64,000 bases of DNA, taken from Gammaproteobacteria bacterium (lineage in GTDB: Bacteria > Pseudomonadota > Gammaproteobacteria > Eutrophobiales > Eutrophobiaceae). Location: the NCBI GenBank assembly GCA_021773215.1, contig JAJFKM010000077.1, positions 5,973 to 69,972 of the forward strand. Reading direction: 5' to 3'. The position numbers were made by a program, and so were the translations under genes. Positions 5,682 through 56,888 of the stretch are shown here, in pieces. Position 1 is the stretch's first letter. Each line of letters begins with the position of its first letter. The notes beneath the pieces are model-generated. The model saw only the letters and a program-made list of their open reading frames with translations, searched no databases and was not told the origin of the DNA.

Positions 5682-6267
5682 TATTATTCCTTAATGAAGT
5701 TATCATGGGTAACAATGTTGTTTCCCAGTCGTGCCAGCTAATTGGGCCAACATGTTTATAACGGATAATACCGTTTTGATCGATGAGAAAAGTTTCGGGT
5801 GTGCCATAAGCACCCCATTCGATTCCAACCTTGCCATCCTCATCTACAGCATTGTCACGATATGGGTCGCCATAATTCTGTAGCCAATCAATGCCCAGTG
5901 CAGGGACGTCCTTATAATATAAGCCATAAATAGGAACTTCTTTGCTTTGTGCTATCTTCATCAAAACAGGATGTTCTTGTCGACAAGAGGTGCACCATGT
6001 CGCCCAAATATTTAGCAGGCTTACTTCACCTTGGAAATCGGTGTGCTGAATCATTTCCTCCGGGTTGCTCAATTTAGGTAATGAAAATACCGGTGTAGGC
6101 TGTCCGATTAAAGGTGAAGGTATTAAACGCGGGTTGAGTCCAAGGCCAAAAAAGAAAAACACCATTAACACTGCAAATAAACCTAAGGGCAAGAGATAAA
6201 CCCAGTGCTTTGCTTTAGGTTTTGCTTGTTGTTCTGATGATGTTTGAGTATCAACTGGCTGTGACAT
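5671..6267 (-). CDS. ccmG: Thiol:disulfide interchange protein CcmG/DsbE
   Basis: WATWCTSCRQEHP thioredoxin motif; GAYGTPETF. Confidence 0.95.
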   Translation of the reverse strand: MSQPVDTQTSSEQQAKPKAKHWVYLLPLGLFAVLMVFFFFGLGLNPRLIPSPLIGQPTPVFSLPKLSNPEEMIQHTDFQGEVSLLNIWATWCTSCRQEHPVLMKIAQSKEVPIYGLYYKDVPALGIDWLQNYGDPYRDNAVDEDGKVGIEWGAYGTPETFLIDQNGIIRYKHVGPISWHDWETTLLPMITSLRNNNGV

Positions 6268-8233
6268 GATTTACATCCAATTTGATTTTTTCTTGTTTTA
6301 CTTCGAGTCGATAACGTTTATCCGTTACTGCAAGCAATCCGCCCAAGACCATGAAAAGCCCACCCAACCAAATCCATAAGATAAATGGTTTGTAATAAAG
6401 CCTAACTGACCATGCCTCAGTCACGGGGTTTCGTTGTTCGCCTAGAGAGACATATAAATCTCTTAATAAATTAGAATGGATAGCGGCTTCTGTCATGATG
6501 TTTTTGCGAACGTTATAAATACGTTTTTCGGGCTGCAAAGTCATTAATTCTTTGTCATTTTTGTAAATACGAATTGTACCCATGTCTGCTTCATAGTTTG
6601 GTCCTGTTATTCTTTCGACATCGACTAACTCAAAGCGATATTCTCCCAGTGTCCTGGTATCACCTTTGACCATGTGCACGTCTTGCTCTTGGCTATATAC
6701 ACTGGACAAAGCAATGCCGACGACAGTAAAGCCTAGACCAATATGAGCCAATATCATGCCGTACCATCCTCTTGGGGTTCTTCTTAAACCCTGCAACAAA
6801 CTTTGAGAATTGCGCAATCGTTGTTGTAACTGCACAAAACAACTATTGATTACCCAAAAGGTAAGCAACAGCGCAAACCAGGCTGTGAAACTGGCTTTTC
6901 CAGGAAGGAGCAGAGATAACACGCTTGCAAAAACAATGGCGAGAATGGCCGGTGTGCGTAATTGTTTAATCAGAGTAGAAATATTATCTTCACGCCAGCG
7001 TATTAATGAACCGACTGCGACCAGAAAAACCACTGGTATCATTAGTGGAATAAAGACACGGCTAAAGTAGGGCGGTCCGACAGATATTTTTCCCCCACCT
7101 AATGCTTCGAGTATTAAAGGATAAAGGGTGCCTAGTAACACGGTTAACATAGTAACTAATAAAAGCACACTGTTAGTCAGCAAGGCCATTTCTCGAGAGA
7201 CCAAACTAAAAGGTGTCAGCGTGCGTAACTGCCAAGCCCTAAATGCAAATAAACTTAAAGAGATTCCGACAACCAAGCCAAGGAAGGCCAATACAAAAAC
7301 ACCTCGAGTAGGATCAGATGCGAAGGCATGTACTGATGTTAATACACCTGAGCGCACTAGGAATGTACCTAACAAGCTTAAAGAAAAGCAGATGATCGCT
7401 AACAAAATGGTCCAGTTGCGTAAAGCGTGGCGTTTTTCTGTTACAGCAAGCGAATGAATTAAAGCGGTCCCTGTTAACCATGGCATGAACGATGCGTTTT
7501 CAACGGGATCCCAAAACCACCAACCACCCCAACCCAATTCGTAGTAGGCCCACCAACTTCCTAAAGTAATGCCACCCGTTAAACATATCCATGCGGTTAA
7601 AGCCCAGGGTCGTACCCAACGTGCCCACGCTGTGTCGAGTCTACCTTGCACCAATGCCACAATGGCAAACGCAAACGGTACTGCAAAACCGACATACCCC
7701 ATATAAAGCATAGGCGGATGTATTGCCATCACCGGATCTTGTAATAAGGGATTTAGATCGCCTCCATCTATAGGGGCAGGGAAGTGACGGATAAATGGAT
7801 TCGATGTAAATAAACTAAATAACAAAAAACCAATACTGATAAAACCCAATACTGAAATGACGCCCGCGGCCATGTCGTCGGGGTAATGTTTACTGTACAT
7901 TGCCAGTATTGCGGTCCAGGCACTGAGTATTAATACCCATAATAATAATGAGCCCTCGTGTGCACCCCAAACGCCTGATATACGATAAATTAAAGGCAGT
8001 TCGGAATTAGACGTGTTCGCTGCATAGAGCACAGAAAAATCATGCACGATGAAGGAATAAGTCAGGATGCCATAGGCTGTTAATACTAAGGCAAATTGTA
8101 ACAGGGCAGCAGGTTTCGCTACGGCCATCCAATCTACACGACGACATAACAATCCCATGCCAGGGATAATGGCTTGTACTAATGCGACAGCAAGCGCCAG
8201 GATTAATGCAAAGTGACCTATTTCAGGAATCAT
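6251..8233 (-). CDS. ccmF: Heme lyase CcmF
   Basis: MIPEIGHFALIL start; WAYYELGWGGWWFWDPVENAS motif; SVHAFA. Confidence 0.97.
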   Translation of the reverse strand: MIPEIGHFALILALAVALVQAIIPGMGLLCRRVDWMAVAKPAALLQFALVLTAYGILTYSFIVHDFSVLYAANTSNSELPLIYRISGVWGAHEGSLLLWVLILSAWTAILAMYSKHYPDDMAAGVISVLGFISIGFLLFSLFTSNPFIRHFPAPIDGGDLNPLLQDPVMAIHPPMLYMGYVGFAVPFAFAIVALVQGRLDTAWARWVRPWALTAWICLTGGITLGSWWAYYELGWGGWWFWDPVENASFMPWLTGTALIHSLAVTEKRHALRNWTILLAIICFSLSLLGTFLVRSGVLTSVHAFASDPTRGVFVLAFLGLVVGISLSLFAFRAWQLRTLTPFSLVSREMALLTNSVLLLVTMLTVLLGTLYPLILEALGGGKISVGPPYFSRVFIPLMIPVVFLVAVGSLIRWREDNISTLIKQLRTPAILAIVFASVLSLLLPGKASFTAWFALLLTFWVINSCFVQLQQRLRNSQSLLQGLRRTPRGWYGMILAHIGLGFTVVGIALSSVYSQEQDVHMVKGDTRTLGEYRFELVDVERITGPNYEADMGTIRIYKNDKELMTLQPEKRIYNVRKNIMTEAAIHSNLLRDLYVSLGEQRNPVTEAWSVRLYYKPFILWIWLGGLFMVLGGLLAVTDKRYRLEVKQEKIKLDVNHVTAS

Positions 8234-32996: not shown

Positions 32997-34166
32997 ATGG
33001 CTAAACAAATATTCGAAGCCTCTTATTCAGAATATATCGGAAAAAAGATTGGCAATATTGTTATCACCGAATACATTGGTGAAGGCACTATGGGAATAGT
33101 GTTTAAAGGTCACCATAAAAACTTAGATATTGATGTTGCTATAAAGATTATTAAGGAAGAACTATTAAGTTCGAGAGCAGATGAATACTTAGGTCGATTT
33201 GAAAGAGAAGCACGAATAGCGGCGCGGCTAAATCACCGATGTATAACTAGAATTATTGATTATGGTTTTATTGAAAACAAACCTTATATTGTCATTGAGT
33301 ACATAGATGGTTTTACTCTTTCTGAGTTCATAAAGGCATCTGAAGATGATATTGCTGAAACGAATATTTTAAAGTTAATAGGTATGGTTGCCTCCGGATT
33401 ATATGAAGCGCATAAAAATGGGATTATTCATCGCGATATGAAGGCACAAAATATAATTATATCCCGTGAGGGAAGACCCTATATTACAGATTTAGGGTTA
33501 GCTCGTGATGTTGCAGATCTGAATATTACCCAAGCATCAGTCGTCATGGGGTCTCCAGCTTATATGGCGCCAGAAAATTTTACTTCTGAAGCTGGAATTG
33601 ACTTGCGCAGTGATATTTACAGTTTAGGCTGCACCGCTTATTTCGCAGCCTTTAAAATGTTGCCCGTGAAAGGTGTTTCTATTAAAGAGATTATCAATAA
33701 ACATGTTAACGGAGATATTGACTTTAGTTGCCAAACAAATTGCAGTGAAGCGACAATTGAAATTATAAAAAAAATGATGGCTCCAAATATAAATGATCGT
33801 TATCAGTCCGCACAGGAAATAGTAAATGATATTAAACGTCTACTAGACAGTCAAAAAAAGATAGCTAAGTCTTTAAAAGATAGAATGCAAGAAAAGGAAG
33901 TAACGGCCTCGCAAGAATATTATACAGAAACAATGGAAGCGACATCTTCTGTCGCTTATACAGGAAGTGATTCATTAACGGGTAGCAATGTATTTCTGAA
34001 TGTTGCTAGTGTCTTAAATATATTAGAAGAGCGACTAGGTTCATCTGAAAGTTCTCACGGCAGCATTAATATCACACACGCAACGCTAAAAGATAGAATG
34101 ATATTGTGGGTACTATTAACAGGATTGTTTGCCTTCACTATAATTGGCTATTTACTAACAAGTTAA
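32997..34166 (+). CDS. Hanks-type serine/threonine protein kinase with C-terminal TM
   Basis: IGEGTMGIV, VAIK, HRDMKAQN, DLGLA, GSPAYMAPE, SDIYSLG. Confidence 0.93.
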   Translation: MAKQIFEASYSEYIGKKIGNIVITEYIGEGTMGIVFKGHHKNLDIDVAIKIIKEELLSSRADEYLGRFEREARIAARLNHRCITRIIDYGFIENKPYIVIEYIDGFTLSEFIKASEDDIAETNILKLIGMVASGLYEAHKNGIIHRDMKAQNIIISREGRPYITDLGLARDVADLNITQASVVMGSPAYMAPENFTSEAGIDLRSDIYSLGCTAYFAAFKMLPVKGVSIKEIINKHVNGDIDFSCQTNCSEATIEIIKKMMAPNINDRYQSAQEIVNDIKRLLDSQKKIAKSLKDRMQEKEVTASQEYYTETMEATSSVAYTGSDSLTGSNVFLNVASVLNILEERLGSSESSHGSINITHATLKDRMILWVLLTGLFAFTIIGYLLTS

Positions 34167-35882: not shown

Positions 35883-37052
35883 ATGAATTTCACGACCGTA
35901 TTTAGAATCAGTAATATTGCCCTATTTGGCTGCTTATTTGGATATCCATTTGTCGCAATGACAGACGAAGCTCAATATGAGATCTGTTTCAATTTCACAA
36001 TTATCACTAAACAAAATAATGATGTTTCAGAAGTCGCTCAATATAAACAGCAAAAATCTTTGTTGCATGAAGAATTATCAAGGACAGAATTAGTGTTTGA
36101 TAAAAACAAAGAGCAAAGCTGTCCGAATATTAAATTTAAACAAGAGATAATAAAGCATGTTACATGGGAAAAAGCACTTCGATTGAGTCAGCCACGAGAC
36201 CAAGGTTTCAATGAAAAAAAATCTGACTATCAAAACAGGAGAATAGAAGAAGATCTTAATGAAATAGAACTTATAGCTACGAAAATAAAACAGACTCCAG
36301 ATATTAAATACTATTCATTGCTAGAGCTATCTCCTGGCCCTGCAATAGTTAATGCTAAAAGGGCTCTTGTTGCGAAGGAAACCGAGCATCAGAGATTGGG
36401 TGATAGCACGAGCTTGCATGCATTAGAAAAGTTACGCGTAAAAACGCAAGCATCAATTCATATAATCAATGAAAAACTCGATTATTATGGTGTCGAAAAG
36501 AAATATGAGCTCGTGAAGAGAGCTGAGTCTATGCATAGAAAATATAAGGAAATAGATAATGCCAGCGCGAATAGGTGGCAAGAAGGTGTTTTAACACTAT
36601 GGAATGATGTAGCAGCTCAAGATACATCGATCGAATTAAAAAACCTAATTCAGCACCATCATACACAAGGCAATAACTGTTTAGATGTTTATGTCGTACC
36701 TAAAGCTAATAGTCCATCAAGAGGCACGGATGAGATTAAGAAAAATAATGATTGGACTGTTCGTGGTGGCGCAGCCTTGTCAGAAAAATTATTTCCTAGA
36801 ACGACAGCAGGGAAAGGCCATGTAATTATTCTAACGCAAGATGCCAGGAAAACAGAAAATAGATTGGCACATGAGTTAGGTCATTTATTGATTGGTAAAC
36901 GAGATGCTCATTTTGGTAAAGAAGCTAAAGATTTGATGCACGAAAACAGTTTAGGCGGCTCTTATCTTGATGAAGAAGAATGCAAGAAAATTAAAGAAAA
37001 TATTACAACTTTCTTTCGTCATTCCCGCCTCGGCGGGAATCTAGAACAATGA
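35883..37052 (+). CDS. Hypothetical exported protein with zinc-metallopeptidase-like HExxH motif
   Basis: N-terminal hydrophobic segment; LAHELGHLLIGKRDAH...DLMH (metzincin-like with possible Met-turn). Confidence 0.6.
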   Translation: MNFTTVFRISNIALFGCLFGYPFVAMTDEAQYEICFNFTIITKQNNDVSEVAQYKQQKSLLHEELSRTELVFDKNKEQSCPNIKFKQEIIKHVTWEKALRLSQPRDQGFNEKKSDYQNRRIEEDLNEIELIATKIKQTPDIKYYSLLELSPGPAIVNAKRALVAKETEHQRLGDSTSLHALEKLRVKTQASIHIINEKLDYYGVEKKYELVKRAESMHRKYKEIDNASANRWQEGVLTLWNDVAAQDTSIELKNLIQHHHTQGNNCLDVYVVPKANSPSRGTDEIKKNNDWTVRGGAALSEKLFPRTTAGKGHVIILTQDARKTENRLAHELGHLLIGKRDAHFGKEAKDLMHENSLGGSYLDEEECKKIKENITTFFRHSRLGGNLEQ

Positions 37053-39316: not shown

Positions 39317-39877
39317 ATGCACTTACTAATTCTTGGTCTTTTGCTGTGGACGATAATCCACTTTTTACCTTCAGTTGCTAAATGCACAAGGAAATCAATT
39401 ATAAGTAAAATTGGAATCGGCCCATACAAAGGTTTATTCGCAATCTTGATTGTCTTATCAGTAGTACTGATCGTATTTGGCTGGCGTAGCATAGAGCCTC
39501 TTGATATTTATCATCCGCAAAGCTGGGGCAGACATGTCACATTCCTCTTGGTCCTACTGACATTTATTTTATTTGTTGCTGCACGCAAAGCAACAAACAT
39601 AAAACGATTCCTGCGCCATCCTCAATTAACAGGATTAGTGTTATGGAGTATTGGTCATCTATTTGCTAATGGTGATAACCGTTCATTGATATTATTCAGT
39701 TGGCTTGGTGTATGGGCAATTATTGAAATGATTCTGATCAGTCGACGTGAAGGGGCATGGCAAAAACCTGAACCTGTCTCTGTAAAGAATGATGTTGTTA
39801 CTGTAATAGGTGGTTGTGTTATATATGCTGTCCTATTAATAGCGCATCCTCATATAACAGGAATAAATTTAATTTAA
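39317..39877 (+). CDS. NnrU family membrane protein
   Basis: RHPQLTGLVLWSIGHLFANGD motif. Confidence 0.88.
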   Translation: MHLLILGLLLWTIIHFLPSVAKCTRKSIISKIGIGPYKGLFAILIVLSVVLIVFGWRSIEPLDIYHPQSWGRHVTFLLVLLTFILFVAARKATNIKRFLRHPQLTGLVLWSIGHLFANGDNRSLILFSWLGVWAIIEMILISRREGAWQKPEPVSVKNDVVTVIGGCVIYAVLLIAHPHITGINLI

Positions 39878-40064
39878 TTGTATATATTGAAAGCACTAGT
39901 GAATAGTTAGTAATGAATCAGTTAACTGATTCAGAGTTAGAAGGGTGTTGCATGATTTTGAATTTTTCACATAGTGCGCTATCAAAGATTTGAATAATCT
40001 ATTATTTCTATTCCTTATGAGTTCCTGAAAATAATCATTAATATGGCCATCGATTTTAATGACT

Positions 40065-40451
40065 TTATTCTTCGCTTTTAAGAGACATTAATGAGTCACG
40101 AATCACGTTCATTGAGTTTAGTGATGTGGCAAAACCTGAAAAAATTGCAGCTAAACTGCAGACTTCATAGATTTCATCTTCAGATAAACCGCACAGGTAA
40201 CTGAGCCTACTCTGATATGCCGTTTGTGGCTGCATATTGCCATTAGATATAGTTATTGCTAGAACGACTAATAGCTTCTCTTTTAATTTTAGATGACTAT
40301 TCTTTGAATAATTTTCGCCGTATAATCTGGATACAAGCTCTTTGGTTAGCGAACTGGAACCTTGACACATGCCTTCTATTACTAATAGAGCATCTGGGTC
40401 TTTTTGTTGTAGCCAGTTTAGACCTTCTTGAAAAATTTCTTCGTTAACCAT
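40065..40451 (-). CDS. Carboxymuconolactone decarboxylase/AhpD-fold protein (degenerate)
   Basis: YGENYS...LKLKEKLLVVLA...GLSEDEIYEV...IFSGF matches the CMD fold; ATG at 40451 with GAGG RBS overlaps the upstream stop. Confidence 0.7.
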   Translation of the reverse strand: MVNEEIFQEGLNWLQQKDPDALLVIEGMCQGSSSLTKELVSRLYGENYSKNSHLKLKEKLLVVLAITISNGNMQPQTAYQSRLSYLCGLSEDEIYEVCSLAAIFSGFATSLNSMNVIRDSLMSLKSEE

Positions 40452-41502
40452 TCTGTGAAACCTCTCTTCCAATAAATAGTGTTGAATTTCGATTGTATTC
40501 TTGAGCTAAATTTTTGAAGCTACATAAAAGCTTATTTCCAGTTTCAGACAAAATAGCATTACTTTCGATAGCATAAAAAGCATCATGAAATTGGTTTAGA
40601 AGACTTTCTGTATTAGGAAAGTTATATTTCGCAGTTCTTTTTAAATTTTTATATTTACCACTATCATAGGCTAATCCTAGAATAAAAATTATTCTACTAA
40701 GAACCCCCGCGGCATGAAATACAGCACTTATTGGACGCGGGTCAGGTCGCAATGGTGAACATAGCAAGATACCTTTATCTTTCTCTATAAGTCTTTGTGA
40801 ATGCCAGATGCTAAATACTAGATGGTGAGCAGATTCATGAATTAAGTGTTCCAAATACGTTGTCCAGTCCTGTTCTGATTCAAGCTCTCTCATAAAGACT
40901 ACCCCAAATGACTTAAAGCTTGATGCAGCATTTATTTGGTTTGATTTTACAATTAGTATTTCAGTAAGGTGGCATAATGTTTCACCATACAAATCATTGC
41001 TTAGTTCGTTAATGACCGTTATTGCTTTTTTAAGCTGTGATATAGAGTATTGAGCACTATTTAATTCACAAGGCTCTGCCACGACATCGTAAATATTATT
41101 AGGGTCTTGCTCGTTTTTTATCAACTCACAAAGTATATATTCTTCACTTAATGAGAAACTACCATCACCCAAAGCAGAAACCCTTAATTCAATAGATTTA
41201 ACATTTAGATTATCAAAATTATCCAATGCACTTTCAATTCGTTTCATATTTTTACTTATAATAGAATCTTCCAGTAATGAGTACGCAGAATAAAACACAC
41301 CCGAAAGTCTGTTCTCCGTGTTTTCATTTAGATATGATTGAGCTTCGCTTATACAATTTTCTAGTGAATTAGTTTCAAATTTACATATGCATTTCAATTT
41401 GCTATTTAGATATTCGGCAGAATATAACAATCCTGTATCTGTTTTTCTGCAAAGCACTCGTGCCCGAACTCTACAAGGCTTTGCATCAAAAACACTCCTC
41501 AT
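40444..41502 (-). CDS. aKG-HExxH-type peptide-modifying enzyme (putative beta-hydroxylase)
   Basis: AASSFKSFGVVF, YLEHLIHESAHH, SPLRPDPRPISAVFHA; start ATG 41502 after GGAG. Confidence 0.8.
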   Translation of the reverse strand: MRSVFDAKPCRVRARVLCRKTDTGLLYSAEYLNSKLKCICKFETNSLENCISEAQSYLNENTENRLSGVFYSAYSLLEDSIISKNMKRIESALDNFDNLNVKSIELRVSALGDGSFSLSEEYILCELIKNEQDPNNIYDVVAEPCELNSAQYSISQLKKAITVINELSNDLYGETLCHLTEILIVKSNQINAASSFKSFGVVFMRELESEQDWTTYLEHLIHESAHHLVFSIWHSQRLIEKDKGILLCSPLRPDPRPISAVFHAAGVLSRIIFILGLAYDSGKYKNLKRTAKYNFPNTESLLNQFHDAFYAIESNAILSETGNKLLCSFKNLAQEYNRNSTLFIGREVSQNG

Positions 41503-41516
41503 TGCACTCTCCAAAG

Positions 41517-41543
41517 TCCCCGCCTAGATTTTTCAGGCGGGGA
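41517..41543 (-). other. GC-rich hairpin between the precursor ORF and the HExxH gene
   Basis: TCCCCGCCT-9nt-AGGCGGGGA, 9-bp stem. Confidence 0.75.
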
Positions 41544-41550
41544 TTTAACC

Positions 41551-41724
41551 TTAAGTAACAACGTGTATAGTTGTTGTAATACCTTCATCTTCTAGCTTCC
41601 TTAGTTTGTCAGGGTCAAGTTGAAGGTCTATTTTAACTTCAATAGTAACTCCATCTTTTGTGACTACAGCTGGCGAGGTATCACTAATATCAACTTCTTT
41701 ATTTTCATTTTCTTTTTTTGTCAT
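41551..41724 (-). CDS. Putative RiPP precursor peptide, 57 aa (not in ORF track)
   Basis: Manual translation MTKKENENKEVDISDTSPAVVTKDGVTIEVKIDLQLDPDKLRKLEDEGITTTIHVVT*; AAGGA RBS; co-oriented directly upstream of the HExxH gene. Confidence 0.7.
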   Translation of the reverse strand: MTKKENENKEVDISDTSPAVVTKDGVTIEVKIDLQLDPDKLRKLEDEGITTTIHVVT

Positions 41725-41970: not shown

Positions 41971-42078
41971 GAAAGTTTGTTTTTAATGAAGGTAAAATTT
42001 TTCAAATCTATATCAGGTATTAAAGTGAGTGAATTATGTGCTAATAAAAATATTATGCGTTAGTATTTCTGTCTGTCA

Positions 42079-42116
42079 GGTGGTGAATATTTATGAGGGT
42101 GGTGAATATTTATGAG
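42079..42116 (+). repeat. 19-bp tandem duplication of RBS plus start codon
   Basis: GGTGGTGAATATTTATGAG twice (42079-42097, 42098-42116). Confidence 0.9.
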
Positions 42117-43911
42117 TAAAAAAATAAGACGTGGTTATGCTATCGCTGGTGACACAGATACGAACGATCTGGTTGGTCCCATCCCGCCCCCAGAAAATCA
42201 AAGAGCGAGAATGACGAGGTGGTTTTCACCAACGGAACTTCTTCGGATAGTGGCAGATGTAGTTGTTTCTACATTAATTGGAAAATATATCAGCACAAGG
42301 TTAATTGAGGCGTTAAAGGAACCAAAGGCACCATCACATGATTATTCTAAAGGTGACATTGATTTAAATGAATTTTGGTTTGATTATGTCGCTGACACGG
42401 GAGATGGCTGGAATTCCACATATGACATTGCTAGGACCATTGCTCGACCAGTGCTTGATATACATCTATCTGATACTGATAAATTTCATTCAACTATTCG
42501 CGGTAAAATTCTAATTTTTGGTGGTGATGAAATTTACCCTTCTCCGTCACAGTCTGGCTATCAATTCAAATTAGAAAATGTTTATCGTACTGCTCTGAAT
42601 GGGGATACTAATCCTCCGGATGTTTTCGCTATCCCTGGTAATCATGATTGGTATGATGGATTAGCTGCATTTTCTAGACTCTTTGTTGCAGGAAGGAAGT
42701 TGGGTCCTTGTCAAACTAAACAAAAAAGAAGTTACTTCGCTCTTAAGTTACCTAAAAATTGGTGGCTAATAGCAACTGATATACAGCTTGGGTCAGATAT
42801 TGATGCAGCTCAGTTACAATATTTTAAAGAGATTGCTGCAGGATTTGATGAGTTTGCACAAGTAATACTATGTGTAAGTGAACCACACTGGGTCTATGCT
42901 TCATTAAATGAGGATAGGGATGATGAAAGTAACCTTGTAGTTCTGGAACAGAAAGTGTTGAAGAATCGGGTGATGGTTTTTATTTCTGGAGATCAGCATC
43001 ATTATAGTCGGCATCAAGGACCAAATAATATTCAGAAAATAATTTGTGGTGGAGGTGGAGCTTTTCTGCATGCAACTCACCGACCAAAGAAATTAAGTAA
43101 ACTAAATGGCGGCTTTGAACGAATGGCTTGTTATCCAAAAGCTAGTGAATCTTCTAAGCTAGCATTACGAAATTTTTTATTTCCATTTATTAACCCAGAG
43201 TTTTCGATTGTTCCGGGCATTATATATACGATGACCGTGATTATGTCTCAGCATGATTTCAGTAACTATAAATTTAATCAGATTAGTATGCTGTATTTAG
43301 ATTCTGCTGCAAAATTACTGATAGAACCCATTTGGCTTGTTTGGGTATTTTTATTATTCAGTTCCTTCATTATTTTTTCAGATCGAAATGGTATGGTTTT
43401 TCGTATTGCCGGTGGAATAACACATGCTTTTATCCATATTTGCACAGCACTTACTATTGGATGGTTGTCGTTTTATTTAATGCAAACACCTACACCAATT
43501 AATATAGATAACCCACTAAATAACCTGTTGGCGCTAACTCTAAATTTTATCTTGTCTGCAATTATTGGTTCAATATTATTTGGTTCTTATCTATATATTT
43601 CTCTAACTTTCTTTGGTAAGCAAGTTGAGGCTGCATTTTCTGGGCTCAGAATTCAGGATTGGAAGAGTTTTCTTAGGTTCAATATTGATAACAAAGGTAG
43701 CTTGCATATTTATGCTATAGGGATAGATCGTGTTTGTCGTAAGTGGAAAATAATACGAGAGGGTAATATTTCGATGTTAGTACCCGATTCAAAAGATTCT
43801 AAGGCAACAAAACCACATCTAATTGAACGAATAACGATAAAACCTTTAAAAGATTCACATCGGTTAAAGATGTGTAACGTAGAAAGTATATCGACCAACT
43901 TTGATCAGTGA
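42112..43911 (+). CDS. Calcineurin-like metallophosphoesterase with C-terminal membrane domain
   Basis: DYVADTGDG, GGDEIYP, IPGNHDWYDG, SGDQHHY, GGGGAFLH; several TMs after about aa 360. Confidence 0.85.
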   Translation: MSKKIRRGYAIAGDTDTNDLVGPIPPPENQRARMTRWFSPTELLRIVADVVVSTLIGKYISTRLIEALKEPKAPSHDYSKGDIDLNEFWFDYVADTGDGWNSTYDIARTIARPVLDIHLSDTDKFHSTIRGKILIFGGDEIYPSPSQSGYQFKLENVYRTALNGDTNPPDVFAIPGNHDWYDGLAAFSRLFVAGRKLGPCQTKQKRSYFALKLPKNWWLIATDIQLGSDIDAAQLQYFKEIAAGFDEFAQVILCVSEPHWVYASLNEDRDDESNLVVLEQKVLKNRVMVFISGDQHHYSRHQGPNNIQKIICGGGGAFLHATHRPKKLSKLNGGFERMACYPKASESSKLALRNFLFPFINPEFSIVPGIIYTMTVIMSQHDFSNYKFNQISMLYLDSAAKLLIEPIWLVWVFLLFSSFIIFSDRNGMVFRIAGGITHAFIHICTALTIGWLSFYLMQTPTPINIDNPLNNLLALTLNFILSAIIGSILFGSYLYISLTFFGKQVEAAFSGLRIQDWKSFLRFNIDNKGSLHIYAIGIDRVCRKWKIIREGNISMLVPDSKDSKATKPHLIERITIKPLKDSHRLKMCNVESISTNFDQ

Positions 43912-43933: not shown

Positions 43934-45655
43934 ATGACTAATCATTATGAGGCTATTATCGTGGGTTCTGGGTTCGGTGGTTCAGTCATGGCATATGAAT
44001 TAGCTAAAGCTGGTATGAAAGTTTGTATTCTTGAGAGAGGTAAAGCTTACCCTCCAGGCTCATTTCCAAGGAGCCCACGTGAGGTAGCTAGAAATTTCTG
44101 GGATCCAAGTAAACGTCTTTATGGAATGTTTGACATTTGGTCATTTCGAAAAAGCGAGGCGATAGTAGCTAGTGGGCTTGGTGGTGGTTCTCTAATATAT
44201 GCAAACGTATTAATTCGAAAGCCATCAGAATGGTTCAATCGTGAACTTTCGGATGGTACAAACGTGCCTTGGCCAGTAACTTATGAGTTATTAGAGCCAC
44301 ACTATAATGAAGTTGAGAAAATGCTTTGTGGGCAGAAATTTCCATTGAATCGCTTACCAAAAAAAATGACAAAGAAAGCAAGGGCATTTGCTAGTGCTTC
44401 TATTAAAGTTGGATTGAAGACTTACCAGCCTTTATTAGCCGTTACGTTTGCCAATAAAGGAGAGCCACCAAGGATAGGTGCCCCTATACATTCACTAGAT
44501 ACTAATTTACATAACGCACCGCGTGAAACTTGTCGGTTATGTGGTGAGTGTGACTTTGGCTGTAATTATGGCAGCAAAAACACTCTTGATTTTAATTATC
44601 TCAGTGCTGCTAAACGACTTGGTGTAGATATTAAAACAATGGCAGAAGTGAGAAGTTTCAGCCCTATTGAGGATGACGACTCAATTGTTGGGTATAAAGT
44701 TTCATTTGTACAACATGATTTAAATGATAAGAATCCATCTAGTAATTTAAAGTTAAATTCGTTTACTTGCGACAACCTTATTTTGGCCGCAGGAACATTA
44801 GGTACAAATTATCTTCTTCTCAAAAATCATCAATTTTTCCCTAGAATTAGTCACAAGCTTGGCAGTGGGTACTCAACTAATGGCGATTTACTAAGTTTTG
44901 CGATCCAATGTCGGGACGTTCAAAATCAATCAAAAAAACCTAAAATACTTGATCCTAGTTGTGGTCCTGTCATTACTACAACAGCAGAAGTAAAGTTTTC
45001 CTCAGGAAAGGGAGGGCATATTCAGGATGCAGGTTACCCAGAGTTTCTCAGTTGGTTGGTAGAAGTGAGTAATATTAGAGGAAATTTATTTCGAATATTT
45101 AGATTCATATTTAATAGAATATTTCATTGGTTGCACAATGACCCGAGAAGTGAGATCGATGCTGAGATCTCTAGGTTATTAGGCTCAGCAAGATTGAGCA
45201 GTACTTCACTTCCTCTATTGGCTATGGGGTGTGATAAGGCAAATGGACAAGTAAGATTAAGAAAAAGTTTATATAGATTCGGTGTATTCCTCGATATTGA
45301 TTGGGATAAGAAAAGTTCTTCGGAATGCTTTGATACATTATCTAAAACGTGCAAAGAAGTCGTTAAAGAGATGGGTGGGACTTTCGTAAAAAACCCGTTA
45401 AATCGGTTTTTCAAACGAATAATTACTGTTCATCCTCTTGGAGGATGTTCAATGGGGATGGATATTAATCAAGGAGTTGTTGCTTCAAATGGTGAGGTTT
45501 TTAATTATAAGAATTTGTACATTGCAGATGGTTCAATAATGCCTGCAGCTGTTGGCACTAATCCAAGTCTTACAATTGCCGCTATGTCTAGACATATAGC
45601 AATGGGCATTATTCAACAACATATGAAATTGTCCGAGCAAGAAAGGGAACATTAA
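43934..45655 (+). CDS. GMC oxidoreductase, cholesterol-oxidase(ChoD)-like
   Basis: VGSGFGGS, LERG, GLGGGSLIYANV, CRLCGECDFGC, KNTLDFNYL, TVHPLGGC, NPSLTIAA. Confidence 0.9.
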   Translation: MTNHYEAIIVGSGFGGSVMAYELAKAGMKVCILERGKAYPPGSFPRSPREVARNFWDPSKRLYGMFDIWSFRKSEAIVASGLGGGSLIYANVLIRKPSEWFNRELSDGTNVPWPVTYELLEPHYNEVEKMLCGQKFPLNRLPKKMTKKARAFASASIKVGLKTYQPLLAVTFANKGEPPRIGAPIHSLDTNLHNAPRETCRLCGECDFGCNYGSKNTLDFNYLSAAKRLGVDIKTMAEVRSFSPIEDDDSIVGYKVSFVQHDLNDKNPSSNLKLNSFTCDNLILAAGTLGTNYLLLKNHQFFPRISHKLGSGYSTNGDLLSFAIQCRDVQNQSKKPKILDPSCGPVITTTAEVKFSSGKGGHIQDAGYPEFLSWLVEVSNIRGNLFRIFRFIFNRIFHWLHNDPRSEIDAEISRLLGSARLSSTSLPLLAMGCDKANGQVRLRKSLYRFGVFLDIDWDKKSSSECFDTLSKTCKEVVKEMGGTFVKNPLNRFFKRIITVHPLGGCSMGMDINQGVVASNGEVFNYKNLYIADGSIMPAAVGTNPSLTIAAMSRHIAMGIIQQHMKLSEQEREH

Positions 45656-54194: not shown

Positions 54195-54272
54195 TTCGCT
54201 TATTTTCTTCTCTGTAATTAAACGATTGACGAATTCTTGATGTGCCGTCATCTCGCTTAGGTTCAACATTAA

Positions 54273-54347
54273 GCGAGCGCGGTTTTTTAGAGCTACGTCT
54301 GAGCCTGGCAACAGTGTTGACTGTCGTCGCAGCGCTCCTCAGAACGT
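54273..54347 (-). ncRNA. SAH riboswitch upstream of metH
   Basis: Minus strand: TCTGAGGAGCGCTGCGACGACAG...CTGTTGCCAGGCTCAGA...AACCGCGCTCGC, matching the GAGGAGCGCTGC/CCAGGCTC/GCGCTC consensus with pseudoknot. Confidence 0.9.
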
Positions 54348-56381: not shown

Positions 56382-56544
56382 GTAGTGATAACTCCCCGTC
56401 AGAATTCATATGTGTTTACACAGTTTATTTTTTTAACACATATAGGCAGACTTTTATTTTAATTTATTTTTGTGCCATGTTTTGTGAAACATTGAAAAAG
56501 TTTAATTTGACTAACACAGGATAGTCAGTATCCTGCGCGATTGA

Positions 56545-56747
56545 AAGTATTAGGTGCCAACTGTGTAAGAACAGTTGTATTAAACGGGAAGTCGGTGCGT
56601 ATTTTAAACAATTCCGACGCTGCCCCCGCAACGGTAGACGAGTTAAAGTTTATTCATTAAGTCACTGTGTCGTAAGTCTAAAAACGATATGGGAAGGCGA
56701 ATAAATAAATGCAATGCATTGCTCGTAAGCCCGGAGACCGGCCTGAT
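56545..56747 (+). ncRNA. Cobalamin riboswitch
   Basis: AGGTG...AACGGGAAGTCGGTG...AATTCCGACGCTGCCCCCGCAACGGT...GTCACTG...TGGGAAGGC...AAGCCCGGAGACCGGCCT. Confidence 0.95.
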
Positions 56748-56888
56748 ATTTATTAAACCACGCTGCGGGCGGCTGTGAAGGCTATCACTATGGATACAGA
56801 GTTCTCTGTAGTCATCATATTAGCTCTTAGTTGCTCCCAGCATAAATACAATCAATTGGTGCGGCGGGCATCACGGGAGTTTTATCTA

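Follow-up and report, generated by a model that had tools for sequence, protein, structure and literature searches.

A short conserved peptide, a standalone aKG-HExxH oxygenase and a CMD-fold protein form a candidate minimal RiPP-like cassette in a gammaproteobacterial genome

Can a pathway for peptides that are ribosomally synthesized and modified post-translationally (RiPPs) be reduced to one short peptide gene, one oxygenase gene and the gene of a single partner protein? This question is raised by a three-gene cassette found in the window analyzed here, i.e. the stretch of 64,000 nucleotides taken from contig JAJFKM010000077.1 of the Gammaproteobacteria bacterium assembly GCA_021773215.1. 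An earlier note on this DNA had proposed that the cassette is a RiPP locus encoding a 57-aa precursor, a standalone enzyme of the aKG-HExxH type and a protein with the carboxymuconolactone decarboxylase (CMD)/AhpD fold. The present analysis revealed a peptide gene maintained by selection, two proteins that belong to these families and a conserved gene order. We therefore consider it reasonably probable that the cassette is a minimal RiPP-like operon whose main modifying enzyme is the HExxH oxygenase. The aKG-HExxH enzymes, which have only recently been recognized, are Fe(II)/2-oxoglutarate oxygenases that beta-hydroxylate His, Asp, Phe, Gln or Pro residues of ribosomal peptides, and their chemistry "at present cannot be predicted" (PMC13060819). 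The papers cited here and below were available to us in part, and statements about published systems are limited to these parts.

Read on the minus strand between positions 39900 and 42000, the cassette successively comprises a ribosome-binding site, a 57-codon open reading frame (ORF), a stem-loop, the HExxH gene and the CMD gene (Table 1). The short ORF, its AAGGA site and the hairpin that follows lie where the earlier note had placed them, and the coordinates bear out the succession of a HESAH protein and of a CMD gene overlapping its stop. The enzyme likely starts at ATG 41502 (preceded by GGAGAG at 41512-41507) rather than at TTG 41514, and the CMD gene starts at ATG 40451, in an 8-nt overlap with the stop of the HExxH gene. 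The cassette is flanked by a convergent NnrU gene (39317-39877, plus strand) and a divergent gene encoding 599 aa (42112-43911, plus strand), and is therefore a three-gene unit.

It is practically certain that the 57-aa ORF is a real gene. The only close homologue of the enzyme in a collection of 5.8 billion proteins (P0002, 62% identity) is encoded by a 1,915-bp metagenome contig, L002, which displays the same layout: a 55-aa ORF (MSKKEEDEVKEVESPPAVVTKDGVKIEVKVELQLDPEKLRKLEDEGITTTIHVVT, 210-377), a stem-loop, the HExxH gene and a CMD gene that overlaps the HExxH stop, again by 8 nt. Conservation of synteny, which the earlier note had suggested to examine, is thus found for this homologue, and more distant HExxH genes also follow short ORFs. 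Over their last 40 codons, the peptide genes of the window and of L002 have 17 identical codons, 19 synonymous changes and four conservative non-synonymous changes (78% nucleotide and 90% amino-acid identity). This pattern, dominated by synonymous changes, indicates a translated gene under strong purifying selection. The identity between the two loci reaches 90% for the peptide tail, compared to 62.2% for the enzyme and 77.2% for the CMD protein. A search of the protein collection with a peptide profile retained four proteins among 21 candidates: the one of the window, the L002 peptide, P0156 (MSEKKDLEESQKSESPPAVVTKDGVKIEVKVDLQLDPEKLRKLEDEGITTTIHVVT, from a 710-bp contig), whose 40 C-terminal residues are kept apart from conservative changes, and P0155 (MSEGNDDKKVDEQSVSRPPRFPAKAKMKVEVEFELDDERIFNLQDGGLTTTLVTSN), which is the peptide of locus L003 described below. 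Since the exact 57-aa protein is already present in public gene calls (P0154), its previous description as unannotated is not strictly right. The 15-17 N-terminal residues are variable and charged, and residues 18-57 are conserved; the latter include LQLDPDKL (residues 34-41), followed by a 15-residue tail, KLEDEGITTTIHVVT. A leader of the NHLP or Nif11 type was also considered and rejected, the peptide having no match in Pfam or NCBIfam.

The hairpin that separates the peptide and enzyme genes is also conserved as a structure. In the window, the 66-nt stretch that carries it has a minimum free energy of -22.1 kcal/mol (z = -2.94), and none of 200 shuffled sequences was as stable. The corresponding stretch of L002 has a different sequence and still folds (minimum free energy -26.6, z = -4.05). 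No clear U-tract was found at the stem-loop of the window. Stem-loops located between precursor and enzyme genes, favoring an excess of peptide, are a common device of RiPP operons. Here, the peptide would be translated in excess over the enzymes, the stem-loop possibly acting as a partial terminator or as an mRNA stabilizer.

The 352-aa protein can be assigned to the aKG-HExxH family with very high confidence. Its comparison with family models, proposed in the earlier note, gave 50.3 bits with NCBIfam TIGR04267 ("aKG-HExxH-type peptide beta-hydroxylase"; cut-off, 40 bits), or 52.2 bits in the search of the genome, and all 10 enzymes taken from related loci pass this model; the window enzyme has no Pfam match. 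An exhaustive HMMER search retrieved 910 cluster representatives with an E-value (E) ≤ 1e-3, including 170 with E ≤ 1e-10 and 13 with E ≤ 1e-30; most of the homologues, among the matches listed, have 315-365 residues and align over their full length. In the protein collection, three proteins with E ≤ 1e-3 were found among 2,605 candidates. An alignment of 28 sequences shows that H222, E223, H226, R256 and P257 are invariant and that P250, R252 and H263 are at least 90% conserved. The profile derived from this alignment matches ChlH (PDB 8s5f) with E = 1.3e-11, the HExxH motif and the SP.R..RP..H block being in register, and the block SPLRPDPRPISAVFHA of the window aligns with SPWREDLRPPSGLLHA of ChlH. 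The P.R...RP....H block would bind 2-oxoglutarate and supply a third ligand. The AlphaFold2 model of the enzyme (pLDDT 91.7, pTM 0.90) has the fold of ChlBHExxH: the first four Foldseek ranks are 8s5f chains (E from 7e-11 to 4e-10, TM-scores of 0.52-0.61, about 350 columns), the fifth is SjiH (22ob), and ordinary zinc peptidases come far behind. Every in silico feature agrees with membership of the aKG-HExxH family, and oxidation of a peptide with Fe(II), 2-oxoglutarate and O2 is the predicted activity.

The 128-aa protein belongs to the CMD family, as shown by its score with Pfam PF02627 (29.8 bits; cut-off, 23), its similarity to the single-domain CMD structures 2af7 (E = 4.7e-5) and 4g9q (E = 1.9e-5) and its atlas matches, all 30 of which are CMD clusters. 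Its three cysteines (29, 86 and 97) are kept in L002 and are isolated. The CxxC motif is defining for the AhpD peroxidase branch, and an AhpD-type peroxidase was therefore ruled out. A true PcaC (4-carboxymuconolactone decarboxylase equivalog) was rejected as well, the protein scoring 21 bits with TIGR02425 against a cut-off of 155.7. Three of 28 candidates from the collection of 5.8 billion proteins are close CMD relatives: the window protein itself, P0158 (encoded by L002, 78% identity) and P0159 (66%, on a 1,510-bp contig). Both close CMD proteins that could be placed lie in peptide-HExxH-CMD cassettes. Among all ORFs of loci L001-L022, the only CMD relative is that of L002 (next best E = 4), and a sample of 400 genomes of the class of the window contains distant CMD homologues only (23-29% identity, 11 other genomes), none of them in genomes that have an HExxH match. 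It is quite likely that the CMD protein works in the same pathway as the HExxH enzyme.

More distant HExxH loci were searched for in one genome per species, by a pattern scan based on the 28-sequence alignment, in which 20 of the 112 pattern matches were confirmed as loci, and in the 400-genome sample, which gave four further genomes with a match beyond that of the window (one genome could not be scored). Scans of genome and metagenome contigs with the window enzyme alone retrieved no loci; P0002 or the alignment, used as queries, did find loci. The best of the 20 loci, L003 (labeled as a Flavobacteriaceae metagenome-assembled genome, MAG), encodes an enzyme 30% identical to that of the window (E = 5e-35), preceded directly by P0155 (phmmer with the window peptide, E = 1.4e-4); a gene encoding an FkbM-type methyltransferase overlaps the end of the enzyme gene. 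L003 therefore combines the same type of peptide with a different second enzyme. Its cassette lies between a Mob_Pre-like gene (1724-2992; 24.2 bits, just below the cut-off) and an IS3-family transposase gene (5876-6733), which hints at mobility. Its GC content is 0.52, a value that seems high for Flavobacteriaceae, and L003 may be a mobile or a mis-binned contig.

Five Xenorhabdus species (L004-L007 and L011) carry a 36-aa ORF (e.g. MNTAKKDNKNNKIKLDAKKIFSASANRTAPIMDQVN) followed by genes encoding an HExxH enzyme, an FkbM methyltransferase, an MFS transporter, a GNAT protein and a ClpP homologue. Two alphaproteobacterial MAGs (L009 and L010) display an ORF encoding MSTAKPKEKELKKVVVDETKVFKINHTAAEPIRDQSN, an HExxH gene and an FkbM-like gene, and L010 also has a ClpP-like gene. 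These loci represent a conserved type of cluster, with an ORF of 36-37 aa, of which no published description was found among the papers listed, judging from titles and the openings of abstracts. As a mere idea, the extra ClpP copy of these clusters might serve for self-resistance. In L025, L026 and L029 (genomes G068 and G233), the ORFs located upstream have long tails with repeated KIG units. G068 holds two such loci. In L025, L026 and L027 (the latter in G186), the HExxH gene adjoins a gene encoding a protein of 291-323 aa; the N-termini of these proteins look similar by eye, and the copies of L025 and L027 that were run have no Pfam match.

The alignment of the upstream peptides revealed a single invariant Asp, included in a motif that can be written hydrophobic-x-hydrophobic-D-x-x-K/R-hydrophobic. 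The window peptide has LQLDPDKL at this place, that of L003 FELDDERI, those of Xenorhabdus IKLDAKKI, those of the alphaproteobacterial MAGs VVVDETKV, and those of L025 and L029 VSIDPSKL and VILDSNKL. A short same-strand ORF with this motif, defined post hoc, directly precedes the HExxH gene in 13 of the 25 assessable loci, representing seven lineages including that of the window (the window, L002, L003, L004-L007, L009-L011, L025, L026 and L029); L027, whose contig ends, and L028, a weak partial match, were left out of the tally. The corresponding regular expression has 40 matches in 387,192 six-frame residues, 13 of which fall within the ORF that immediately precedes an HExxH gene. A stricter class-level pattern, derived from the window-type peptides including that of L003, was run on 24 other loci: it has 44 matches in 245,369 residues, nine in upstream ORFs and 35 in the background, the latter corresponding to about 0.007-0.016 expected matches per ORF of 46-115 residues. 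It is found in four of the five remaining lineages that have an upstream ORF, the L026 peptide having N for D and for K. Furthermore, the distance from the first residue of the motif to the stop is exactly 24 residues in 10 loci from four lineages (window and L002, L003, five Xenorhabdus, two alphaproteobacterial MAGs). This fixed spacing aligns the 15-residue tails without any gap: KLEDEGITTTIHVVT in the window, NLQDGGLTTTLVTSN in L003, SASANRTAPIMDQVN in Xenorhabdus and KINHTAAEPIRDQSN in the alphaproteobacterial MAGs. The fourth residue from the C-terminus is His in the window, Val in L003 and Asp in both Xenorhabdus and the alphaproteobacterial MAGs. Taken as a candidate recognition sequence, the shared motif is a good lead rather than a result.

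Co-folding, another check put forward in the earlier note, combined the enzyme, given with an alignment of 28 rows, the CMD protein, and the peptide, given with an alignment of three rows and taken as the scored partner. In two of the three controls the peptide was replaced, and in the third the HExxH chain was replaced and the CMD protein kept. The score of 0.56 (runs of 0.56, 0.03 and 0.66) exceeds that of the best control (0.00) and is classified as "weak support". The mark is reached by 58 of 80 solved complexes and by two of 110 mismatched pairs, but just seven of the 80 solved complexes reach it with a score of at most 0.60, as do both passing mismatches. The agreement between runs concerns at least 6% of the contacts, and the pLDDT of the partner is at least 43. 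This result, which bears on the peptide and not on HExxH-CMD binding, makes docking of the peptide on the oxygenase, as opposed to the CMD protein, slightly more probable and no more than that.

Taken together, these data make it likely that the peptide is the substrate of the HExxH enzyme, and the following scenario can be proposed. The Fe(II)/2-oxoglutarate oxygenase would bind the conserved middle of the peptide, including LQLDPDKL, and would oxidize a residue of the 15-residue tail, most likely by beta-hydroxylation. The preferred site would be His54, the fourth residue from the C-terminus, with Asp46 and the Thr run as alternatives. His54 is favored because it is aligned with an Asp in two clades, because His and Asp are the substrates of ChlBH and because PflC acts on the fourth residue from the end; since L003 has a Val at this position, this choice is a guess, and a doubtful one. 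The CMD protein, whose translation would be coupled to that of the oxygenase, would then act on the oxidized residue or serve as an obligatory partner, as it holds the position occupied by the FkbM methyltransferase in L003 and in the Xenorhabdus and alphaproteobacterial loci. Its fold family suggests a decarboxylation or an isomerization. As no protease or exporter gene lies nearby, the product may stay full-length or may be processed by genes located elsewhere, as discussed for the pfl cluster.

Several points weigh against this scenario. No modification of the peptide has been observed. All 40 C-terminal residues are conserved, instead of a conserved leader followed by a variable core, and the peptide could thus be a small folded protein. 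Searches with Pfam and NCBIfam models among the genes scanned (31.6-48.8 kb) detected no protease, exporter or radical SAM enzyme, in agreement with the earlier note; a protease and an exporter are usual in RiPP clusters, without being obligatory. In 12 of the 25 assessable loci (L008 and L012-L022), the gene upstream of the HExxH gene encodes an MFS transporter, a formamidase-like protein or an ABC ATPase, and no ORF with the motif was seen directly upstream. Both motif patterns were chosen after the data had been seen, and a profile HMM built from the four window-type peptides fails on the Xenorhabdus and alphaproteobacterial peptides (E = 39-88; 4,671 six-frame segments from 24 other loci); as the cross-clade profile is at noise level, the claim of a common leader is kept at the level of the motif only. 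One of the three co-fold runs scored 0.03, and the fold of the peptide itself is uncertain. The CMD protein lacks a CxxC motif and has an Ala aligned with the His of KSHVRG from 2af7, which makes the canonical decarboxylase or peroxidase reaction doubtful. Finally, a search of 40 relatives, including 22 from the same genus, did not reveal the enzyme, so that the role of the cassette in the organism cannot be judged from conservation.

Some of these points fit another explanation: instead of being a substrate, the 57-aa product would be a small folded protein serving the oxygenase as regulator, chaperone, inhibitor or carrier, and the HExxH and CMD proteins would act on a small molecule or on another protein. 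The conserved 40 residues, with their beta-rich pattern and without variable core, are what would be expected in this case, as are the lack of a nearby protease or exporter, the uncertain fold and docking of the peptide and the related loci devoid of a motif-bearing ORF. However, the tails of the upstream short ORFs found in seven lineages are unrelated, a situation more in keeping with substrates than with a conserved regulator, and a hairpin favoring an excess of peptide is typical of precursor genes. Furthermore, the characterized aKG-HExxH enzymes described in PMC12636437, PMC13060819 and PMC12707348 all act on a ribosomal peptide encoded by their cluster. We therefore regard a non-substrate peptide as rather unlikely.

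According to a second alternative, which is a variant of the RiPP-like operon rather than an exclusive rival, the product of the cassette would be an intracellular cofactor or signal derived from the peptide; its C-terminal end would be reshaped by the oxygenase and the CMD protein, and export would be unneeded. The lack of exporter and protease, the fixed distance of 24 residues between the motif and the C-terminus in 10 loci and a second enzyme from a decarboxylase family would suit such a product. However, related clusters include MFS transporters and ClpP-like proteases, pointing to exported or processed products, and no evidence was obtained for a partner enzyme using such a cofactor, so that this variant appears very unlikely. 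Lastly, that the HExxH protein is a metallopeptidase trimming the peptide by zincin-like hydrolysis is highly improbable: its fold is related to that of zincin proteases, with weak Foldseek metallopeptidase matches after ChlBHExxH, and PflC hydrolytically releases a C-terminal tetrapeptide when the leader is missing, but this hydrolysis concerns truncated substrates and not the full-length peptide (PMC12636437), and the window protein passes the oxygenase family model and keeps the Arg/Pro/His block after HExxH, aligned with that of ChlH.

If the RiPP-like operon is retained, a broader generalization can be put forward as a tentative possibility, less probable than its opposite. Standalone aKG-HExxH oxygenases of about 330-350 residues would form a broad, unrecognized RiPP-like class, mainly in Proteobacteria, in which (i) the enzyme reads the short leader motif described above, (ii) its action takes place at a set distance from this motif, close to the fourth residue counted from the C-terminus, and (iii) a swappable, translationally coupled second enzyme, FkbM in most clusters and CMD here, converts the oxidized residue. 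If this is true, the CMD-fold protein of the window performs a peptide reaction not known for that fold.

Among the known systems, ChlBH (ChlH; 8s5f) is the best fold match of the window enzyme, with which it has in common the TIGR04267/IPR026337 model, the HExxH motif and the SP.R..RP..H block, at 15% sequence identity in the structural alignment. It is an Fe/2-oxoglutarate beta-hydroxylase of His and Asp residues of a ribosomal peptide (Morishita et al. 2024, via PMC12636437 and PMC13060819). However, ChlBH forms a fusion with a radical SAM cyclophane synthase and requires a cyclophane installed beforehand, whereas the window enzyme is standalone, with no radical SAM enzyme nearby. More generally, the published aKG-HExxH enzymes are fused to a radical SAM enzyme, as ChlBH, or belong to larger clusters with MNIO, radical SAM or Asn-synthetase-like enzymes (PMC12636437, PMC13060819, PMC12707348, PMC12912966). 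PflC and PosC, from the pfl and pos clusters of Pseudomonas, are likewise standalone aKG-HExxH enzymes acting on a leader-bearing peptide, in clusters without a protease gene (PMC12636437). They perform an oxidative backbone cleavage at the first residue of the C-terminal ARMD tetrapeptide, and this oxygen chemistry requires the leader, which also determines the reach of the enzyme along the peptide (PMC12636437). Their site is thus the first residue of a C-terminal tetrapeptide, and the window family has a fixed 15-residue tail with His, Asp or Val at the fourth position from the end. The pfl and pos clusters differ by an MNIO-nitroreductase fusion, a GNAT protein and transporters, none of which is encoded by the window cassette, and by an NHLP-type precursor with a Gln run and ARMD, unlike the window peptide; no CMD protein is reported there in the available part of this source.

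PesO (nitrilobacillin; PMC13060819), which performs the beta-hydroxylation of Pro, and BipH/BpmH (biphenomycins; PMC12707348, PMC12257519) also belong to the aKG-HExxH enzymes that hydroxylate ribosomal peptides. Their role is that of accessory tailoring enzymes in large clusters defined by MNIOs, radical SAM or Asn-synthetase-like enzymes, whereas in the window cassette the HExxH protein is the only recognizable modifying enzyme besides the CMD protein. A similar two-step logic, by analogy only, is found with SmaO and SmaX (PMC12186529): an Fe/2-oxoglutarate hydroxylase makes beta-hydroxy-Asp in a peptide, and this hydroxylated residue is converted further by a second small enzyme. However, SmaO is called only an Fe(II)/2-oxoglutarate oxygenase in the available part of this source, and the enzyme of the SmaX step is an HD-domain iron enzyme, not a CMD-fold protein (PMC12186529). 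Compared to the CMD/AhpD proteins 2af7 and 4g9q, the window protein has the same single-domain size and differs by its coupling to a peptide oxygenase. No paper describing the peptide-HExxH-CMD combination was found among those listed, although the network and neighborhood figures of Morishita et al. 2024 may already show standalone clusters; the earlier note had not recognized this combination from described clusters either. Likewise, a link between CMD proteins and RiPP precursors was found in no paper, the co-mentions being mostly genome annotations or reviews according to titles and the beginning of abstracts. We therefore regard the enzyme family as known, and the precursor family, the CMD partner and the use of an HExxH enzyme as main modifier as new.

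For studying how the HExxH fold recognizes its substrates, the three-gene cassette is among the simplest systems. The 910 representative homologues could be mined with the help of the new precursor family and of the candidate motif, and the cassette might provide the first role of a CMD/AhpD-fold protein in peptide modification. In addition, the clusters of Xenorhabdus, Vibrio and Pseudomonas with extra ClpP copies suggest bioactive products.

Table 1. Features of the cassette and of its upstream region (positions in the window; all on the minus strand).
Feature	Position	Strand	Basis or remark
Candidate sigma-70-like promoter, CTGACA-16-CATAAT	42052-42079	-	Weak consensus match, about 330 nt upstream of the peptide ATG
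AAGGA Shine-Dalgarno-like site	41736-41732	-	7 nt 5' of the peptide ATG, read from sequence
Precursor-like peptide gene, 57 aa, MTKKENENKEVDISDTSPAVVTKDGVTIEVKIDLQLDPDKLRKLEDEGITTTIHVVT	41724-41551	-	Sequence, orthologues
Intergenic stem-loop, arms CCCCGCCT / AGGCGGGG	41542-41518	-	Stem of 8 G+C-rich pairs, loop of 9 nt
Standalone aKG-HExxH oxygenase gene, 352 aa	41502-40444	-	TIGR04267, fold match
HESAH motif of the enzyme	40839-40825	-	Residues 222-226
P.R...RP....H block of the enzyme, SPLRPDPRPISAVFHA	40758-40711	-	Read from sequence
CMD (carboxymuconolactone decarboxylase/AhpD-like fold) gene, 128 aa	40451-40065	-	PF02627

The candidate promoter of Table 1 is not significant alone, as 15 promoter-like sites were found compared to 10.9 +/- 3.1 in shuffled sequences. 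According to Pfam and NCBIfam, the neighbors of the cassette encode a LysR regulator, NnrU, a membrane protein with a weak Metallophos match and a GMC oxidoreductase. Since several neighboring ORFs have no family match, the region looks accessory and rich in orphans. The assembly (2.6 Mb, 80 contigs, 91.7% complete) contains one HExxH gene and no 16S rRNA gene, and the NCBIfam models run on the neighboring genes gave no family specific to a taxon. The gene of the 599-aa protein was not found in 22 genomes of the same genus and, as both this gene and the enzyme gene are missing from relatives, the region is accessory. The GC content is 0.32-0.35 over the cassette compared to 0.36-0.42 in the left flank, and no flanking repeats marking an insertion were found at the cassette.

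Side observations were made on the related loci devoid of a motif-bearing ORF. In L012-L016 and L019 (Endozoicomonadaceae, Fastidiosibacter and Vibrio), the HExxH gene is directly preceded by an MFS transporter gene, and in L012, L015 and L019 it is directly followed by a ClpP-like gene; the HExxH gene of L016 is split into ORFs of 159 and 173 aa. L020 (Pseudomonas helleri) successively encodes an FkbM-like methyltransferase, a ClpP-like protein, a formamidase-like protein (PF03069), the HExxH enzyme and a membrane protein of about 310 aa. This gene order is found in part only in L017 (Citrobacter youngae) and L018 (P. kairouanensis), the HExxH ORF of the latter having just 204 aa.

Other observations concern the window itself. 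The product of the 599-aa gene resembles a membrane-anchored calcineurin-like phosphoesterase (Metallophos, E = 0.0035, below the cut-off); a gene encoding a calcineurin-like phosphoesterase also adjoins the HExxH gene in L029 (2535-3665, minus strand; E = 3e-14), possibly by coincidence. The start codon of the 599-aa gene is included in a perfect tandem duplication of 19 nt (GGTGGTGAATATTTATGAG, two copies, 42079-42116), located in the divergent intergenic region common to this gene and to the cassette. Three genes away from the cassette, a 389-aa protein (35883-37052, plus strand) has a hydrophobic N-terminus and a HELGH motif, without Pfam or NCBIfam match; judging from these features, it could be a secreted metalloprotease-like protein. 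The window also encodes a eukaryotic-like Ser/Thr kinase (32997-34166, plus strand), for which the PknB-type model is the best one, with a score far below its cut-off. The GMC oxidoreductase mentioned above (43934-45655, plus strand) is cholesterol-oxidase-like (228 bits compared to a cut-off of 850). It also carries an S-adenosylhomocysteine (SAH) riboswitch (54268-54346, minus strand) upstream of the gene of a 1,273-aa methionine synthase, and a cobalamin riboswitch (56535-56760, plus strand) upstream of a 683-aa ORF.

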